NCBI GenBank assembly: GCA_034667685.1
Contig: JAXDQU010000021.1
Coordinates: 1 to 64,000 of the forward strand
DNA from: Thermoplasmata archaeon
GTDB lineage: Archaea; Thermoplasmatota; SW-10-69-26; JACQPN01; JAJPHT01
Length of the DNA: 64,000 nt
Direction: 5' to 3'
Shown here: positions 16,671 through 56,247 of the stretch, in pieces
Numbering within the stretch: position 1 is the first letter of the stretch
Layout of the letters: every line of letters starts with the position of its first letter
Notes under the pieces: generated by a model
The model's database searches: none
Told to the model about the DNA's origin: nothing
What the model saw: only the letters and a program-made list of their open reading frames with translations
Translations under genes and position numbers: made by a program

Positions 16671-18209
16671 TCAGCTCACGGTGAAGGCGCGGCTGGCGAC
16701 GTTGCCCGCGGCGGCCGCGTCGTAGATCGTGTTCGCGTCGGCGCCCTGGAGGTTGGAGAGCGCGATCGTCCACGCGCCGCGGTTGGACGACGGGTTGGGG
16801 ATGGTGAGGTTGCCGAACGACATGCCGCCCGCGTTCGTCGCGGGCGAGAAGGCGGTCGTCGCGGGGACCGGGCTCGTCACGTTGTAGAACGTGGTCACGC
16901 CGCCCAGGACGAAGCCGTTCTGGTCCACGACCGTGACGCGCACCGTGACCGTGTCGCCGCGCGCGAACGTGGTCTGCACGTTGCCGGCGAGCAGCGTCGT
17001 GACGTTCGAGGCGTGCACCTTCTGCTGCACGGTGACCGTGGCGCTGCCAGAGTGGCCGTTCGTGGTCGCGGTCACGGTGTCGCTGCCGGTGGTCGTGGGC
17101 GCCGTGTAGAGGCCGCCGCTCGTGACGCTGCCGCGCGTCGCGCTCCACGCGATCGTCGCCGTCGTGTTCGTGTTGCCGTAGGCATCGAGCGCGGTGGCGC
17201 TGAACGGCTGCGTCGCGCGCGTGAGCACGGTGGCGCTCGCGGGGCTGACGCTCACGCTCGCGGGCGCGGCGGGCTGGACGCTCACGCTCGCGGTGTTCGA
17301 CGCGCTGCCGCTCGTCGCGGTGACGGTGAGGCTCGTGGGCGCGGAGGTCGGCGCGGTGAGCGTGCTGCCACTGAGGCTGCCCGCGGTCGTGCCCCACGAG
17401 ACGGTCGCGGTCGCGTTCACGTTGCCATACGGGTCGAGCACGGTCGCGCTGAACGCCTCCGTGCTCCCCGCGGCGATCGTGACGGAGGAGGGGCTGATGG
17501 TCAGGCTCGCCGGTGCGTCCGCGATGAGGTCCACCGTGGCGCTGCCCGAGACGGCGCCGACCGTCGCCATGACCGACTTGCCCGTGCTGGCGGTCGTGGA
17601 CGCGGTCAGCAGGCCGGTCGCGTCGACGCTTCCCGCGTTGGTCGTCCACGCGAACGACGAGACGGGGTACGACGCGCCGAACTGGTCGTAGCCGGCCGCG
17701 CTGAACTGCCGCGTGCCGCCCACGGTCACGTCCGCCGAGCCCGGCGTCACGACGATGCTCGCGAGGTAGGGGCAGCTCACCTTCGTGGCGCGCGCGAGGA
17801 CGCCGTGCTCCGTCGCGAGCGAGAGCGTGCTGGGCTCGCTGGCGACACCCGTCTTGGTGAAGTTGGTCCACTCGCCCGGCGCCCAGAGGAGCGTCGTCTC
17901 GCCGTCCTGCGAGGAGGCCGCGAAGCCCGTCGCCACCTGGCCGTCCATCACGAACGAGACGTTGAGCAGGTCGAGCGGCACGCTCCCGGCGTTCGTCGCG
18001 TTGACGAAGACGCGCTGCGCCTTCGCGTCGTAGCAGAACGTCGCGCCGCCCAGCCGCCCGTCGAGCCGCTCGGCGTCGATCGCGCGCCGCTGGGCCTCCG
18101 CGTGCTCCAGCGCGCCCGAGATGCCGAAGAACGCGCCCAGGCCCGCGCCCGCGAGGCCCACGATCGCCACGAACCAGATGACGTGGCTCGCCGTGACGCT
18201 CAGGCCCAT
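16671..18209 (-). CDS. FlaF/ArlF-like N-terminal domain fused to Ig-like (Big_2) repeats
   Basis: MGLSVTASHVIWF and NATNAGS resemble FlaF; three V.P.S......T..FSA...D.YGN/FG repeats. Confidence 0.75.
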   Translation of the reverse strand: MGLSVTASHVIWFVAIVGLAGAGLGAFFGISGALEHAEAQRRAIDAERLDGRLGGATFCYDAKAQRVFVNATNAGSVPLDLLNVSFVMDGQVATGFAASSQDGETTLLWAPGEWTNFTKTGVASEPSTLSLATEHGVLARATKVSCPYLASIVVTPGSADVTVGGTRQFSAAGYDQFGASYPVSSFAWTTNAGSVDATGLLTASTTASTGKSVMATVGAVSGSATVDLIADAPASLTISPSSVTIAAGSTEAFSATVLDPYGNVNATATVSWGTTAGSLSGSTLTAPTSAPTSLTVTATSGSASNTASVSVQPAAPASVSVSPASATVLTRATQPFSATALDAYGNTNTTATIAWSATRGSVTSGGLYTAPTTTGSDTVTATTNGHSGSATVTVQQKVHASNVTTLLAGNVQTTFARGDTVTVRVTVVDQNGFVLGGVTTFYNVTSPVPATTAFSPATNAGGMSFGNLTIPNPSSNRGAWTIALSNLQGADANTIYDAAAAGNVASRAFTVS

Positions 18210-18776: not shown

Positions 18777-18813
18777 GGGCGCGCGACCGCGGACGACGCG
18801 CTTCAATCCTGCG

Positions 18814-18876
18814 GGACTCTGGACTCAGGGCTCGGGGCTCCGGAGCCTTGAGCCCGGAGTCCAGAGCCCCGAGCCC
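18814..18876. repeat. Imperfect intergenic palindrome of heptamer units
   Basis: ggactctggactcagggctcggggctc / gagccttgagcccggagtccagagccc, 23/27 paired. Confidence 0.75.
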
Positions 18877-30093: not shown

Positions 30094-30912
30094 TCAGTGG
30101 CCGGAGAAGTTCGGCACCCTCTTTTCCACGTACGCCGCGATGCCTTCCTTGGCATCCTTGGACGCGAAGAGCTGGGCCTGCAGCTCGCGCTCCAGGGCGA
30201 GGGCCTCTTCGAGCGGGATCTCGGCGCCGGTCTGCACCGCGCGCTTGATCATGCCGACCGCGAAGCTCGCCTTGTTGGGCGGGCAGTACTGCTTGGCGTA
30301 GTCCATGACCGTCTTGCGGAAGGTGTTGGCGTCGCCCTCGAGGATGTCGTTGACGATGCCGTGCTTGACGGCCTCCTCGAAGGTGAAGTTGCGGCCCGTG
30401 ACCATCATCTCGATGGCGAGGGGCTTGCCCACGAGGCGGACGAGGCGCTGCGTGCCGCCGGTGCCGGGGAGCACGCCGAGGTTGACCTCGGGGAGGCCGA
30501 TCTTGCCCGCGTCCTTGCGCGCGATGCGGATGTCCGCCGCCATGGCGATCTCGAGGCCGCCGCCCACGGTGTGGCCGTTGAGGGCCGCGATGACGAGCTT
30601 GGGCGTGTGCATGAGGCGGTTGAGCGTCTCGTTGGCGTGGAGGCAGAACTGGTACTTCCAGGCCGGCGTGACGCTGTTGAGCATGCCGATGTTCGCGCCG
30701 GCGCTGAAGAACTTCTCGCCCTTGCCGGTGAGCAGGAGGACGTGCACCTGGTCGTCGAAGCGCGCCTTGAGGATGGCCTCGTCGAGCTGGCGCATCATCT
30801 CGTGCGTGTACGTGTTGGCCGGCGGGTCGTCGAGCTCGATGACGGCGACGCCATCCTCGACGTGGTAGTTGATGACCTTCTTGTTGGGGTCGGGCTTCCA
30901 GGTGCCGGTCAT
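30094..30912 (-). CDS. Enoyl-CoA hydratase/isomerase
   Basis: FSAGAN, ALNGHTVGGGLE, GLPEV.LG.LPG.GGTQRL; AGGAG SD before ATG 30912. Confidence 0.93.
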   Translation of the reverse strand: MTGTWKPDPNKKVINYHVEDGVAVIELDDPPANTYTHEMMRQLDEAILKARFDDQVHVLLLTGKGEKFFSAGANIGMLNSVTPAWKYQFCLHANETLNRLMHTPKLVIAALNGHTVGGGLEIAMAADIRIARKDAGKIGLPEVNLGVLPGTGGTQRLVRLVGKPLAIEMMVTGRNFTFEEAVKHGIVNDILEGDANTFRKTVMDYAKQYCPPNKASFAVGMIKRAVQTGAEIPLEEALALERELQAQLFASKDAKEGIAAYVEKRVPNFSGH

Positions 30913-30947
30913 GCGCAGGACACTCCTGATTGGCGTGGCCATCCTTG

Positions 30948-31574
30948 GGGGGGTCATAAAGGGTTTGCCCCTCGTCCGGGCCGCTCGCGGGCTCCGCATG
31001 CGACGACGCGACGGGCGCGACGACCGCGACGGCGAGGTGAGGCGATTCCCGGAGGAGAGTCAAGCCAACCTCACGCATGCCCTCGGCGATGATGCGGCTT
31101 CGGGATGTTTCGGACGAGACCAATCGGCTCGCGCGCATGGTGATGGACGCCTCGCTCGAAGTCCACCGAGCGCTGGGCCCCGGGCTCCGCGAGGCGGATT
31201 ACCAGGATTGCCTCGTGTTCGAGCTTGAAGAGCGTGGGCTCTCCGTGTCCAAGGAGACACGCCTCCCCCTGCGATACAAGGACCGCATCCTCCTGAGAGG
31301 GAGCCGCGTCGACCTCGTCGTCGAGGAAAGGTTGCCGGTCGAACTGAAGGCGGTGGAGAGCCTGCACCCGAAGCACTTCCTCCAGGCGCGTTCTTACGTG
31401 AAATTCGGGGGCCACGACCTCGGCGTCCTCGTGAACTTCAACGAAGCGCGCCTGGTCGACGGCTGGCATCGCGTGCTCCCTGGGCGGCCCTCCGTCCACG
31501 TCGCGCGCGTCGCGCCCGCCGCGTCGTCGCATGCGGAGCCGGCGGGGCCCCGCCCCAACGATTTATGACCCCCC
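30948..31574. mobile_element. Putative GxxExxY cassette bounded by nested inverted repeats
   Basis: 13/13 IR (30948-30960 / 31562-31574) and 42/46 IR (30986-31031 / 31499-31544). Confidence 0.55.
31077..31568 (+). CDS. GxxExxY protein (PD-(D/E)xK nuclease superfamily)
   Basis: VHRALGPGLREADY, RVDLVVE...VELKAV, Q..SY, G.LVNF; start uncertain (31077/31089/31092). Confidence 0.92.
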   Translation: MPSAMMRLRDVSDETNRLARMVMDASLEVHRALGPGLREADYQDCLVFELEERGLSVSKETRLPLRYKDRILLRGSRVDLVVEERLPVELKAVESLHPKHFLQARSYVKFGGHDLGVLVNFNEARLVDGWHRVLPGRPSVHVARVAPAASSHAEPAGPRPNDL

Positions 31575-31592
31575 TCCGGGTTCGCCGCCCCC

Positions 31593-32741
31593 ATGACGAA
31601 GGCGCAGTACAAGGTCGCGCTCCTGCCCGGCGACGGCGTGGGCAAGGAAGTGCTCGCGGAAGGCAAGCGCGTCCTCGACGCGGCCTCCGAGCGCTTCGGC
31701 CTCCACCTCGCGTACCAGGAGTACGCCTGCGGCGGCGAGTATTACCTCAAGACCGGCAAGGAGTGGGAGCCCGAGGCGTTCCCCTACTGCCGCGACGAGG
31801 CGGACGCGATCCTGCTGGGCGCGGTCGGCTGGCCCGGCGCGAACCTCCCCTCGGGCGACATCGCGGGCGCGGGCATCGTCTTCGGGCTGCGCTTCGGGCT
31901 CGACCTGTACGCCAACGTGCGCCCGACCAAGCTGTACCCGGGCGTCAAGCACAAGATCGGCAACCAGTTCATGGACGTCTGGCAGCCGAAGAACGTCGAC
32001 TTCGTCATCATCCGCGAGAACACGGAGGGCCTCTACACGCCCGCGCGCGGCTGGCTCAAGCGCGGCTACGGCGAAGGGCTCGAAGGCCTCGCGGAGGTCG
32101 CGACCGACACGAACATCATCACGCGCAAGGGCGCCGAGCGCGTCAGCCGCAAGGCGTTCGAGCTCTCCATGCAGCGCGGCAAGGGCGCGCCCAAGGACGG
32201 CAGGAAGCGCGTCACGTGCATCGACAAGGCCAACGTGCTGCGCGGCTCGCAGCTCTTCCGCGCCGTCTACGACGAGGTCGCCAAGGGCTTCCCCGCCGTC
32301 GAGAAGGACTACGCCTACGTGGACGCCTTCACGCAGTGGATCGTCCGCAACCCCGAAGGGTACGACGTCGCGGTCGCGTCCAACATGCTCGGCGACATCG
32401 TGACCGACCTTGCGGCGGTGCTCCAGGGCGGCATGGGCATGGCGGCCTCGGGCAACATCGGCGACAGGCACGCGATGTTCGAGCCCATCCACGGCAGCGC
32501 GCCCAAGCACGCCGGCCAGTCGGTCAGCAACCCGATCGCCACCGTCGGCGCGGCGCAGATGATGCTCGAGTGGCTCGGCCACAAGCACGGCGACCGCAAG
32601 ATGATCGACGCCGCCCACGCGCTCGACCGCGCCGTCGCGCACGTCGTCGCCGAGGGCAAGGCGCTCACCTACGACCTGGGCGGCTCCGCCAAGACGCACG
32701 AGTGCGGCGAGGCGATCGCGAAGGCCGTTAGGGTAGCCTGA
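31593..32741 (+). CDS. Isocitrate/isopropylmalate dehydrogenase family enzyme
   Basis: LPGDGVG.E, YANVRP, IRENTEGLY, DKANV, FEPIHGSAP. Confidence 0.93.
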   Translation: MTKAQYKVALLPGDGVGKEVLAEGKRVLDAASERFGLHLAYQEYACGGEYYLKTGKEWEPEAFPYCRDEADAILLGAVGWPGANLPSGDIAGAGIVFGLRFGLDLYANVRPTKLYPGVKHKIGNQFMDVWQPKNVDFVIIRENTEGLYTPARGWLKRGYGEGLEGLAEVATDTNIITRKGAERVSRKAFELSMQRGKGAPKDGRKRVTCIDKANVLRGSQLFRAVYDEVAKGFPAVEKDYAYVDAFTQWIVRNPEGYDVAVASNMLGDIVTDLAAVLQGGMGMAASGNIGDRHAMFEPIHGSAPKHAGQSVSNPIATVGAAQMMLEWLGHKHGDRKMIDAAHALDRAVAHVVAEGKALTYDLGGSAKTHECGEAIAKAVRVA

Positions 32742-37243: not shown

Positions 37244-37321
37244 AACACGAAGAGCACCAAGCCACGAAGGCACGAAGTCCCAGAAGCTTCGTGCTCTTCG
37301 TGGCTTGGTGCTCTTCGTGTT
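37244..37321. repeat. CACGAAG-unit palindrome
   Basis: aacacgaagagcaccaagccacgaag-gcacgaag pairs with its reverse complement, one bulge. Confidence 0.9.
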
Positions 37322-38587: not shown

Positions 38588-38640
38588 GCGAATTTCGTTT
38601 CGAGGCGCTCCGGTCGCAAAAGGTCGTTTGCCGGCGCCTC

Positions 38641-38700
38641 TTTCCCAACACCGAGAATCCGCGTCATCCGCGGATGCCTCGGATGCGCGGTGTCGGGAAA
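38641..38700. repeat. Intergenic palindrome between convergent genes
   Basis: tttcccaacaccg...atccg...cggat...cggtgtcgggaaa. Confidence 0.7.
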
Positions 38701-38710
38701 GGAGCGCCAC

Positions 38711-44042: not shown

Positions 44043-44070
44043 GCCGCGGTCCGCTCGCCGCTTCGCGGCG

Positions 44071-44135
44071 CCGCCAGCACGCCACGACGCCAAGGCCTCG
44101 TCGGTTGGCGTGTTGGCGTCGTGGCGTGCTGGCGG
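44071..44135. repeat. ACGCCA-unit palindrome
   Basis: Perfect 23-bp arms ccgccagcacgccacgacgccaa. Confidence 0.85.
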
Positions 44136-44226
44136 GGAAGCGGAGCGGTGGGACACGCACCCTGATATCACGCGCCGGACGACTGGCCACGGGCGGCCCG
44201 CCTTCGTCCACCCTGGTGCGGCTGCC

Positions 44227-45769: not shown

Positions 45770-45779
45770 GCGGCGCGAA

Positions 45780-45926
45780 CCCCAGCCTCGGCCTTAGTCT
45801 TAGCCTCAGCCTTGCTCGCCTCCAGCCACAGAGGACACAAAGGTCACGGAGGAACGAGAAAAGTCGCCTCTGTGGCTGGAAGGGCTGGGGCGGAGGCTGA
45901 GGCTAAGACTAAGGCTGAGGCTGGGG
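45780..45926. repeat. Nested composite palindrome (AGCCTC-type outer arms, CCAGCCACAGAGG inner element)
   Basis: Outer arms 32/33; inner arms 45821-45834 / 45867-45880. Confidence 0.9.
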
Positions 45927-47057
45927 TCAGCCGCGCTTCTCGATGGGCACGTACTCGGCCCGATCCAGCCCGACGTACTCGGCGTCGGGGCGGAAGAGCC
46001 GGTTGTCGGAGAGCTGCTCCATGACGTGCGCGCTCCAGCCGGCCACGCGGCTCAAGGCGAAGATGGGCGTGAACAGGTCCGTCGGGATGTTCATGCTGTG
46101 GTACGTGGACGCGCTGTAGAAGTCCACGTTGGCGTCGAGCCCCTTCATGGCCTTGACCTTGGCCTGGATCTTGGTGCTCATGTCGTACCACTGGAGGTTG
46201 CCGCCGCGCTGGCCGAGGCGGTGGCTCATCTCCTTCAGATACGGCGCGCGCGGGTCGAGGACCTTGTAGATGCGGTGGCCGAAGCCGGGGATCTTCTCCT
46301 TGGCGCTCAGCTTCTCGGCGATGTACTTCTCGGCCTTGTCCGCGTTGCCGATGTCCTCGAGCATGTGCATGACGGCCTCGTTGGCGCCGCCGTGCAGCGG
46401 GCCCTTGAGCGTGCCGATGGCGCTCGTGATCGCGCTGTGCATGTCGCTGAGCGTGCTGGCCGTGACACGCGCGCTGAACGTGCTCGCGTTGAACCCGTGG
46501 TCGGCGTGGAGGACGAGCGCCACGTCGAAGTCGCGCGCGATCTCCGCGTCGGGCTCCTGGCCCGAGAGCATGTAGAGGAAGTTGGCCGCGTGCGTCAGGT
46601 CCGCCTTGGGCGCGATGGGCTCCTGCCCCTCGCGGAGGCGGTGGTACGCCGCGATGATCGTCGCCGTCTTGGCCGTGATGCGGTGCGCCTTGCGCATGTT
46701 GCCCGCGGGGTCGTTCTTCTCGACGTCCGGATCGAACGTGGAGAGCGCGGAGACGCTGGTGCGCAGCGCGTCCATCGGGGGGGCGCGGCCGGCGAGCACG
46801 CGCAGCGCATCGAGCACCGGCGTGGCGAGGGCGCGCTCCTTGGCGAGCAGCTCCTTCGTGTGCGCCAGCTCGGTGCGCGTGGGGAGCTTGCCCTGCCAGA
46901 GCAGGTGCGCGACCTCCTCGAAGCCGCTGTTGCGGGCCAGGTCGCCGATGTCGATCCCGCGGTACGTGAGGCGCCCCTGCTGGCCGTCCACCATGGAGAG
47001 CGACGTCTTGCCCGCGACGACGCCTTCCAGGCCCGCCTTCCACGTGCCGCTCGCCAT
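45927..47057 (-). CDS. citZ: Citrate synthase
   Basis: GLEGV, HADHGFNAST, GPLHGGAN, GFGHRIYK..DPR, NVDFYS. Confidence 0.95.
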   Translation of the reverse strand: MASGTWKAGLEGVVAGKTSLSMVDGQQGRLTYRGIDIGDLARNSGFEEVAHLLWQGKLPTRTELAHTKELLAKERALATPVLDALRVLAGRAPPMDALRTSVSALSTFDPDVEKNDPAGNMRKAHRITAKTATIIAAYHRLREGQEPIAPKADLTHAANFLYMLSGQEPDAEIARDFDVALVLHADHGFNASTFSARVTASTLSDMHSAITSAIGTLKGPLHGGANEAVMHMLEDIGNADKAEKYIAEKLSAKEKIPGFGHRIYKVLDPRAPYLKEMSHRLGQRGGNLQWYDMSTKIQAKVKAMKGLDANVDFYSASTYHSMNIPTDLFTPIFALSRVAGWSAHVMEQLSDNRLFRPDAEYVGLDRAEYVPIEKRG

Positions 47058-47114: not shown

Positions 47115-47197
47115 CCCGAGCCCGCTTTCGAGCCCGATTCCGAGCCCTGTTTGCGCGGCTCATCGGGCTAGGAATCGGGCTCGAAAGCGGGCTCGGG
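47115..47197. repeat. CGAGCCC family palindrome overlapping the uvrC stop
   Basis: 33-bp arms, 32/33. Confidence 0.9.
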
Positions 47198-49131: not shown

Positions 49132-49214
49132 GTGACCCCACCAGAAACCCGAGGACCCGAAAACCCGAGAACCCGAGCCAAGGAATCGGGTTCTCGGGTT
49201 TCTGGTGGGGTCAC
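49132..49214. repeat. GTGACCC...GGGTCAC family palindrome
   Basis: gtgaccccaccagaaa...tttctggtggggtcac with ACCCGA units. Confidence 0.85.
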
Positions 49215-49315: not shown

Positions 49316-50017
49316 ATGCTCGGTGACGCGGTTGCGCCCCTCACGGCCCCCAGCCCTCTTTCGAGCCCCAGCCCGAGCCCTGCTTGCGCGTGGCAGCAGG
49401 GCTCGGGCTGGGGCTCGAAAGAGGGCTCGGGACGGCTACGCATCGGCCTCTCCGCCCAGGAATGGGCCGAGCCCGGACGGCTCACCCTCGTCGTCGCCCC
49501 GCCGCGCTGGCTAAGCGGCCTCGAATCGCGCCTCCTGCTGGACACCATCGCCACCGGCCGCGACGCCTTCCTGGTAAGCGGCGACAACCGCCTCGACGCC
49601 TACGCCCTCCTCGCCCAAGCCCGCGCAAAAGGGCTGGAGACCGAGCTGGCCGACGGCGTCTGGATCACGCGCGCCTTCACCGTCCACCAGCTCGTCGCGC
49701 TCCTCGAAGAAGCGCTCCCCCTCGCCAGCCGCCAACACCCGCTGGGCCTCGCCCTCGCCACCGGCCTCCTGGAGATGTTCCTCGACGAGGACGTTCAACC
49801 CCACGAAGCCCGCGCCCTCTTCACCCGCAGCGTGCGCCGCCTCGACGCCTGGGCCCGGACGCGCGACTTCCCCGTCATCGCCACCCTCGCGCAAGCTACC
49901 GGCGCGCGGGCCGAAGCGCTGCTCGCGGAGGTGCAGGGGCGGGAGCCACCGCGCGCCGCGCCGTCCCAGCTAGATCTGGCCAGATCTAGCCGCCAAGCCA
50001 CGCTGGAGGTGGCCTGA
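49316..50017 (+). CDS. PolB2-associated inactivated RadA/RecA-like protein
   Basis: N.LD.Y, I.RAFTVHQL, F.DE.V; no Walker A; upstream of polB2. Confidence 0.72.
   Translation: MLGDAVAPLTAPSPLSSPSPSPACAWQQGSGWGSKEGSGRLRIGLSAQEWAEPGRLTLVVAPPRWLSGLESRLLLDTIATGRDAFLVSGDNRLDAYALLAQARAKGLETELADGVWITRAFTVHQLVALLEEALPLASRQHPLGLALATGLLEMFLDEDVQPHEARALFTRSVRRLDAWARTRDFPVIATLAQATGARAEALLAEVQGREPPRAAPSQLDLARSSRQATLEVA
49352..49427. repeat. CGAGCCC family palindrome inside a CDS 5' end
   Basis: Perfect 33-bp arms. Confidence 0.9.
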
Positions 50018-54752: not shown

Positions 54753-54863
54753 TCCCGCTGGGGCTTCGCCCCAGACCCCAAACACCACCGAATCCACGAA
54801 TCATCGCGACGCGGATTCGTGGATTCGGTGGTGTTTGGGGTCTGGGGCAAAGCCCCAGCGGGA
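54753..54863. repeat. 50-bp-arm palindrome (GGGGCTTCGCCCCAGACCCC type)
   Basis: Arms 49/50; each arm contains an internal hairpin. Confidence 0.93.
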
Positions 54864-56145: not shown

Positions 56146-56167
56146 TATCAGATCTTCTCGCCCCACT

Positions 56168-56247
56168 CCCGCCACGGAGGACACAGAGGTCACAGAGGAC
56201 GGTTCTTCTCGTTCCTGCGTGTCCGCTGTGTCCTCCGTGGCTGGAGG
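56168..56247. repeat. CCACGGAGGACACAGAGG family palindrome
   Basis: Left arm identical to 34731-34760. Confidence 0.9.

Follow-up and report, generated by a model that had tools for sequence, protein, structure and literature searches.

RAYT genes encode Y1 HUH transposases (TnpA-REP), occur as single copies and are inherited vertically, and the repetitive extragenic palindromic (REP) sequences associated with them are 20–40 nt long and possess a conserved head. Homing endonucleases, free-standing as well as intron-borne, include small enzymes of the PD-(D/E)xK superfamily such as I-Ssp6803I. In miniature inverted-repeat transposable elements (MITEs), short gene-less copies share their terminal inverted repeats with a gene-bearing autonomous parent. 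In the intervening sequences (IVS) in helix 25 or 45 of bacterial 23S rRNA genes, described for Coxiella burnetii and Leptospira (PMC4990558), terminal inverted repeats pair into a long stem that encloses a small open reading frame (ORF). Here we report a related arrangement from an archaeal genome. Within a stretch of 64,000 nt of a Thermoplasmata archaeon (contig 21, positions 1 to 64,000; from here: the window) a gene for a GxxExxY protein of the PD-(D/E)xK nuclease superfamily is located in the loop of a long inverted repeat, between two divergently transcribed housekeeping genes. A survey of PD-(D/E)xK enzymes (PMC3424549) lists the function of the corresponding family, PDDEXK_3, as unknown and notes that it was transferred multiple times from one division to another.

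The arms of this cassette are 46 nt long each, lie 467 nt apart and are complementary at 42 of 46 positions (91%), with four CGCGACG (GCGACG-type) units in the left arm. Ungapped inverted repeats were scored with +1 for every match and −2 for every mismatch. On this scale the arms reached 34, compared to a maximum of 16 at 1500 random sites in the same genome. Single-stranded DNA of positions 30940–31580 was computed to fold with z = −7.4 against 20 shuffles. A sequence-only reading of the window, made without database searches, had already proposed the 46-bp arms, an ORF that reads through the right arm, the lack of a transposase and the assignment of the protein to the PD-(D/E)xK superfamily, and our analysis bears out these four points. 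The units follow each other at periods of 8, 9 and 9 nt. The ORF tail crosses the 3′ arm and ends with a TGA stop codon inside the right one of two outer 13-nt repeats, the last 30 codons consisting of arm and promoter region. There is no transposase among the four neighbouring ORFs scanned, which encode the enoyl-CoA hydratase, the isopropylmalate/tartrate-type dehydrogenase, a glyoxalase and a VIT-VWA protein. The features of the locus are:

30986..31031, plus strand: 5′ arm, four GCGACG-type units with periods of 8, 9 and 9 nt
31032..31076, plus strand: leader from the arm to the start codon, with a motif at 31043–31057
31077..31568, plus strand: GxxExxY / PDDEXK_3 gene, 163 aa, domain at 31125–31475
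31499..31544, plus strand: 3′ arm within the ORF tail, pairing with the 5′ arm
30948..30960, minus strand: left outer 13-mer, read from sequence and relatives as the TATA-type promoter region of the hydratase gene
31562..31574, plus strand: right outer 13-mer, read as the TATA-type promoter region of the dehydrogenase gene, holding the stop codon of the cassette ORF
30094..30912, minus strand: enoyl-CoA hydratase gene, left neighbour (PF00378, E 3.6e-55); the start at 30912 is our reading of an ORF listed up to 30999, and the orthologue in the closest relative starts at the equivalent ATG
31593..32741, plus strand: isopropylmalate/tartrate-type dehydrogenase gene, right neighbour (PF00180, E 1.2e-84), with orthologues in 23 of 40 relatives

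The only Pfam match of the cassette ORF was PF13366 (PDDEXK_3; E 3.9e-32, 111.5 bits at a cut-off of 22, residues 17–133), and TIGR04256 (GxxExxY) was matched with 112.6 bits at a cut-off of 35. The protein contains the motifs GLREADY and D...ELK, corresponding to G-x-x-E-x-x-Y and to the D...E-x-K catalytic residues of PD-(D/E)xK nucleases. Among 29 archaeal homologues that are 28–61% identical, residues G18, E23, Y26, D63 and K75 do not vary, and the conservation of E73 is at least 90%. The predicted structure (predicted local distance difference test, pLDDT, 95.3) has the generic PD-(D/E)xK, restriction-endonuclease-like fold. All of its best matches in VIA-align belong to this superfamily, although none is prominent (Z ≤ 7.6): Cas4 SSO0001 (Z 7.6, root-mean-square deviation 4.0 with 97 aligned residues), AF1548 (7.4), NucS (6.9) and Hjc (6.6). 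Foldseek yielded no match at E ≤ 0.001 with the predicted structure, and a sequence search of the PDB found no solved relative, the best match being Cas4 at E 0.39.

The arms are not peculiar to this locus. PF13366 was matched 46 times in 14 of 41 related genomes, and arms scoring at least 17 were found at 23 of the 31 loci examined, i.e. those matches for which a locus was at hand, whereas shifted windows of the same loci reached at most 15; the eight misses include one locus at a contig end (L032) and one at the edge of its stretch (L058). For a wider sample, one genome per species was searched with a six-sequence alignment (A2) as query, and the best 80 of 598 confirmed loci were analyzed. 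At least 12 phyla are represented, among them Cyanobacteriota, Planctomycetota, Verrucomicrobiota, Bacteroidota, Chloroflexota and Acidobacteriota, and there are methanogens as well. Among the 77 of them not cut by contig ends, 40 had arms scoring at least 17 and 49 at least 15, compared to 0 of 138 shifted controls reaching 15 (maximum 12). The arms at the sampled loci are arrays of 8–9-nt units of the form xCxxAG, e.g. CGCAAAG, CACAGAG, CACGAAG and CACGGAG, of which the CGCGACG unit of the window is a one-letter variant. The 5′ arm is the purine-rich one at 71 of 86 loci. Of the 15 loci without this polarity, four were inspected (L064, L103, L130, L139); in three of these the gene stands between two complete gene-less hairpins, while L064 shows no second hairpin in the stretch inspected. 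Mapped on the protein tree, the unit type requires 35 changes, fewer than in any of 300 shuffles (mean 42.4, standard deviation 1.7, minimum 38), and hence carries a signal; the same few unit types are seen again in 7–8 phyla. Two GxxExxY loci, too few to interpret, were on viral contigs; the arms of one reach a score of 19, and the other is truncated by the contig end.

The genome containing the window (G000; 3.48 Mb, 71% GC, 124 contigs, 99% complete) encodes TATA-binding protein domains and is hence that of an archaeon. It possesses three PF13366 genes, and all three lie inside unit-built arms, with a different arm sequence each: 46 nt with 91% pairing and CGCGACG units in the window, 23 nt with 96% pairing on contig 11, and 30 nt with 97% pairing and CACGAAG units on contig 55, with scores of 34, 20 and 27, respectively (null maximum 16). 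On contig 60 there is a fourth element, with 47-nt arms and a GxxExxY remnant that lacks its middle. Moreover, three of the four genes for PF05635, the four-helix-bundle "23S rRNA intervening-sequence protein", are situated in the same type of hairpin (loci L004, L006 and L007: contig 124, 75964–76465; contig 49, 4102–4574; contig 115, 88–584). The arms on contig 124 are 43 nt long and pair perfectly; the copy on contig 40 has no arms. In the relatives, PF05635 loci scored at least 17 in 11 of 25 untruncated cases versus 0 of 46 controls, with arms mostly made of 6-nt units.

Gene-less hairpins are far more numerous. In the genome 383 long hairpins (arms ≥ 22 nt with ≥ 85% pairing, loop ≤ 120 nt) were counted and grouped into families by their short repeated units. 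According to a crude gene call, they are located in tandem (161), convergent (88) and divergent (54) intergenic regions, inside called genes (52) and at contig ends (28), the 52 being probably start-codon artefacts of the gene caller. Every gene-bearing hairpin has gene-less twins, with arms 92–98% identical. BLAST with the arm of the window cassette gave 30 matches, which fall at 22 sites; identity reaches 97% over 32–42 nt, and the loops measure about 10–100 nt. The sequence-only reading had regarded the cassette as the gene-carrying form of the gene-less palindromes in the window. A dispersed 22-site family with its arms does exist, but none of the gene-less twins lies within the window, whose palindromes belong to other arm families. 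These are ten in number (18812–18871, 37244–37321, 38633–38708, 44058–44148, 45770–45936, 47115–47197, 49132–49214, 49348–49431, 54753–54863 and 56166–56246), represent at least six arm families and are mostly intergenic, several extending across gene ends or lying within an ORF by the crude gene call. One of them (37244–37321) matches the arms of the contig-55 GxxExxY cassette, two (18812–18871 and 45770–45936) match arms or units of two four-helix-bundle cassettes, and the other seven match no gene-bearing arm. A tblastn search for gene remnants in the gene-less hairpins returned only an arm-encoded tail on contig 106 and the contig-60 remnant.

With these data, the analogy to RAYT and REP drawn in the sequence-only reading can be narrowed. 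The layout is parallel: an enzyme gene stands between inverted copies of a short dispersed repeat, which is mostly gene-less, hairpin-forming and intergenic, with gene-less copies outnumbering genes at least 10-fold. GxxExxY is, however, not the only cargo, as a second, non-nuclease one (PF05635) shares the hairpin type. The enzyme is a PD-(D/E)xK nuclease of about 125 aa and not a Y1 HUH transposase, and the arms are arrays of 8–9-nt units instead of a 20–40-nt repeat with a conserved head. Unlike the single-copy, vertically inherited RAYT genes, GxxExxY is present in three intact copies and one decayed copy with differing arms, and the cassettes are rapidly gained or lost, two of them being absent at the orthologous sites in the sister species.

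Several further observations concern the hairpins and their cargo. At contig 106 (35302–35500), a gene-less hairpin of the CGCGACG arm family harbors half a hairpin of the AACCCGAG-unit family in its 103-nt loop, indicating that elements nest in each other's loops. A GCGAAGC-type motif, known as a very stable DNA mini-hairpin, follows 3′ of the right end in several hairpins of the CGCGACG family (contig 54, ~30490; contig 90, ~2570; contig 106, ~35510) and may be part of the element or of its target. On contig 124 (11595–12059, L180), an inverted-repeat pair (44 nt, 86%) surrounds an ORF of 110 aa with a weak, below cut-off match to an EarA-like winged helix (E 4e-4); this ORF may represent a third kind of cargo or be unrelated. 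Two GxxExxY cassettes, a four-helix-bundle cassette and the cassette at the same junction in the closest relative share a leader motif resembling CGATTCCCGGAGRAG, located 11–18 nt inside of the 5′ arm (window, 31043–31057; contig 55, ~19348, minus strand; contig 124, ~76019; contig 11, ~73361; L009, ~2766). The motif is not present in the cassettes of other relatives. It may serve as a common signal for expression or have been left behind when cassettes exchanged their cargo.

Aligned members of the cassette's arm family have a common boundary, GCTCCGCATGCGACG, which in the window starts at about 30991. This bears on the perfect outer 13-mers at 30948–30960 and 31562–31574, which the sequence-only reading had considered as outer arms of the element. 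The repeats are there, and their 9-mer core is found only twice in the 3.48-Mb genome, but as element ends they were rejected: the family boundary lies inside of them, and both are promoter regions conserved in cassette-less relatives. The heptamer TTTATGA occurs 16 times in this GC-rich genome and is in 12 of these cases followed by a long ORF, mostly 30–34 nt downstream, as expected for the TATA box of leaderless transcripts. The right 13-mer is positioned 31 nt upstream of the dehydrogenase ATG, and the same promoter region is kept in the closest relative (G003) and in G008 from another genus; a TTTAAG-type box is found at the equivalent distance from the hydratase gene in G003 and G004. 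Because of the TTTATGA spacing, the conservation in relatives and the position of the boundary, we read the 13-mers as the native promoters of the two neighbours, which would be identical over 13 nt by chance. Accordingly delimited, the element (both arms and the gene, ~30991–31540) appears to have added about 550 bp between the divergent promoters of two housekeeping genes.

Comparison with the closest relative, G003 (dehydrogenase 95% identical at the protein level, flanks 87–89% at the DNA level), allowed us to follow the fate of individual cassettes at orthologous sites. At the junction of the window, G003 also possesses a GxxExxY cassette, with 41-nt arms (88% pairing) and with its gene in the opposite orientation. 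After flipping, the arms of the two junction cassettes are 61–63% and their interior 61% identical. The synonymous divergence (dS) between the cassette genes is 1.59, compared to 0.26–0.28 in the two flanking genes, and the ratio omega of 0.20 in this comparison indicates purifying selection on the protein. A general hypermutation of cassettes was considered as the cause of this divergence and rejected: the decayed contig-60 cassette is colinear with an intact G003 orthologue except for 193 deleted nt of its interior, and is 76–83% identical to it with flanks at 81–83%. Since cassette and flanks diverge alike at that site, replacement or re-invasion would better explain the junction alleles. 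Two cassettes are missing altogether at their orthologous sites. That of contig 11 is absent in G003, G001 and G004; G003 has in its place a gene-less hairpin of another family (GGGGGTTTCAGGGGGCG..., L164, contig 37 of G003, ~16919–17124), from which it follows that the same intergenic site was hit independently, and G004 has only a 100-nt spacer. That of contig 55, including its arms, is absent in G003, where no unit hairpin exists at the site.

For the junction in the window itself, no empty allele was obtained in the comparison with relatives that the sequence-only reading had suggested, as G004 has another gene between the neighbours and the contigs of G001 and G002 end or differ; the inverted, diverged allele of G003 and the absences at the contig-11 and contig-55 sites were found instead. 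Upstream of the dehydrogenase orthologue in G001 (L011, 2735–3071), there are two AT-rich, self-palindromic 30-mers, 97% identical and 277 nt apart. Two soil-sample assemblies (X1, X2) contain the window cassette in unchanged form. Joints in assembled contigs that skip 467 or 476 nt were tried as excision products and dismissed, as they turned out to be gene-less family members of other loci or organisms, one being equal to the contig-90 loop. Neither inversion nor excision was seen in these contig-level data, which would not exclude them.

The explanation that we favor, with middling confidence, is that the locus is a hairpin-armed GxxExxY cassette of a class of small selfish or mobile-type elements, distributed over archaea and many bacterial phyla, whose nuclease acts on its own arms and on which the gene-less hairpins ride in trans. 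The nuclease would recognize the periodic units in the arms around its own gene, probably once these are extruded in the form of a hairpin or cruciform, and would cut there. Host repair or recombination could then copy, flip, swap or delete the content of the loop and seed new copies. The gene-less hairpins would be either deletion derivatives or targets depending on the enzyme in trans, like REPINs on RAYTs. Directly observed are the architecture and its enrichment around GxxExxY genes, the gene-less twins, a deletion intermediate, the presence or absence, inversion or replacement and decay at orthologous sites, the purifying selection on a protein whose active site is intact and the co-occurrence of arrays and genes detailed below; from these we infer the action of the nuclease on the arms.

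Co-occurrence was analyzed by comparing a strict three-unit array pattern with gene counts in the 41 genomes, with 0–2 hits per genome for reversed-pattern controls. Arrays and the gene are found together in 12 genomes, only the gene in two (G020, G039) and neither in 25. Among bacteria, two Nostoc genomes with three genes each have 51 and 31 strict three-unit arrays (reversed-pattern controls 0), a verrucomicrobial genome has seven genes and 14 arrays, and a planctomycete genome 15 genes and 17 arrays.

Several points weigh against the favored explanation. Two of the 41 genomes (G007 and G030) have a few arrays while the gene was not found; these genomes are related, so that the table overstates the case, and each gene's own arms add to the array count. 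The number of arrays does not track the number of genes, with 150 arrays and three genes in G000 compared to two arrays and four genes in G003. In G000 the hairpin families outnumber the nuclease genes, and for the commonest strict three-unit array type, CACAGAGG, no gene-bearing member was found in the 99%-complete assembly. The four-helix-bundle genes in the same hairpin type show that the nuclease is not required for the architecture. To our knowledge, PD-(D/E)xK nucleases cut but do not join, and the full chemistry of transposition would have to be borrowed from the host. In addition, there was no clear direct repeat suggesting a target-site duplication in the flanks of seven family members and two sites empty in relatives; the 7–8-nt near-repeat flanking the contig-55 cassette could equally be an extension of the palindrome. 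In this respect and in lacking a transposase of a known family, the cassette is unlike a MITE and its parent, with which it shares the terminal inverted repeats, the short gene-less copies that have the ends of a gene-bearing copy, and one internal-deletion intermediate. A further difference is that its arms are made of internal repeats and pair from end to end.

An alternative, which we regard as unlikely but worth serious attention, is a homing-type parasite. In this scenario the hairpins are spread by a host process or another enzyme, and the GxxExxY nuclease cuts gene-less hairpins of its own arm family, with break repair copying the gene into their loops; the arms would be target and homology rather than the mobile unit. 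The close gene-less twins of each cassette (92–98% identical arms) and the hairpin families without a gene-bearing member agree with this view, as does the other-family hairpin at the contig-11 site in G003, which shows that hairpins reach intergenic sites independently. That G000 and G003 have strongly diverged alleles (dS 1.59 vs. 0.27), facing opposite ways, at one and the same site is as expected for re-invasion or swapping at one hairpin, and the sequence of gain, decay by deletion and loss resembles the life cycle of homing endonucleases, whose small genes are likewise present or absent at otherwise conserved allelic sites. Unlike these, the cassettes contain neither intron nor intein, are always wrapped in a unit-repeat palindrome and are accompanied by many gene-less hairpins at non-allelic sites. 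Moreover, arms and gene travel together: arms of the CGCAAAG type surround the gene in Cyanobacteriota, Verrucomicrobiota, Pseudomonadota, Acidobacteriota and others, and the xCxxAG form is kept around the gene family in hosts in which few other hairpins were seen, which fits the arms being part of the element. At the contig-55 site, free of any hairpin in G003, arms and gene were gained or lost as one.

Somewhat less probable still is that the selfish-element reading mistakes an RNA-level module similar to an IVS, in which the stem of the transcript is cut by a double-strand-specific RNase or insulates the gene, and the protein has another cellular or defensive role that does not involve moving DNA. 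The 23S rRNA IVS of Coxiella is of the same build, as it has a small ORF and a stem with tandem GACAGAT heptamers, and RNase III cuts it out of the transcript according to PMC4990558, which also describes sporadic distribution, suspected horizontal transfer, ORF-less forms and ORF decay. PF05635 genes of this genome and its relatives lie in the same hairpin type as the GxxExxY genes, and the bacterial arms abut start and stop codons, with units resembling Shine-Dalgarno sequences. The differences are that our cassette is situated between archaeal hydratase and dehydrogenase genes and not in a bacterial 23S rRNA gene, that its cargo is GxxExxY (PF13366) and not S23p (PF05635), and that its genome contains hundreds of dispersed gene-less copies. 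Mismatches in 86 arm pairs, read on the sense strand, show no excess of the G-U-compatible kind (54 GT/TG vs. 72 AC/CA), an Rfam search of the window matched no family, and the hundreds of short-loop, gene-less copies in all intergenic contexts would need spreading at the DNA level regardless.

Finally, it is very improbable that an ordinary host gene stands between regulatory or terminator hairpins or inside a chance repeat: the 383 long hairpins (arms ≥ 22 nt) of this genome are numerous enough for an accidental enclosure, but the two cassette arms pair with each other and not locally, their score is far above the null, the same layout surrounds homologues in at least 12 phyla (among the best 80 of 598 loci) with 0 of 138 controls, and cassettes are present or absent at orthologous sites.

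Beyond this locus, the selfish-element reading can be extended, though only tentatively and with more doubt than for the locus itself. Archaea and at least a dozen bacterial phyla would then harbor a new class of mobile DNA, with GxxExxY cassettes as its autonomous members. The minimal nuclease would read the periodic 8–9-nt units on an extruded hairpin or cruciform and cut at them, and together with host repair this would copy, invert and spread both the cassettes and hundreds of gene-less hairpins and exchange their cargo. The ORF-bearing IVS of 23S rRNA genes would be one landing site with another cargo. A literature search, with most subscription journals outside its reach, turned up no paper that describes GxxExxY genes enclosed by unit-repeat hairpins, and the gene-in-hairpin package is probably an undescribed kind of selfish DNA. 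The locus adds an archaeal genome with both cargoes, a promoter reading of the outer repeats and a four-way comparison with a sister species, which covers an inverted replacement, a decayed copy and two missing cassettes.

GxxExxY / PDDEXK_3 is a large family distributed across phyla, and its tie to a specific DNA structure gives it a directly testable function. The archaeon described here is a good natural experiment in this regard, as it has both types of cargo, a decaying copy, sites that are empty in the sister species and one site at which two strongly diverged alleles face opposite ways. The link to hairpins may explain where the dense intergenic hairpins of some genomes originate from, why small genes such as those for GxxExxY and the rRNA-IVS protein come and go in the spacers of housekeeping genes, and what the rRNA intervening sequences are related to.

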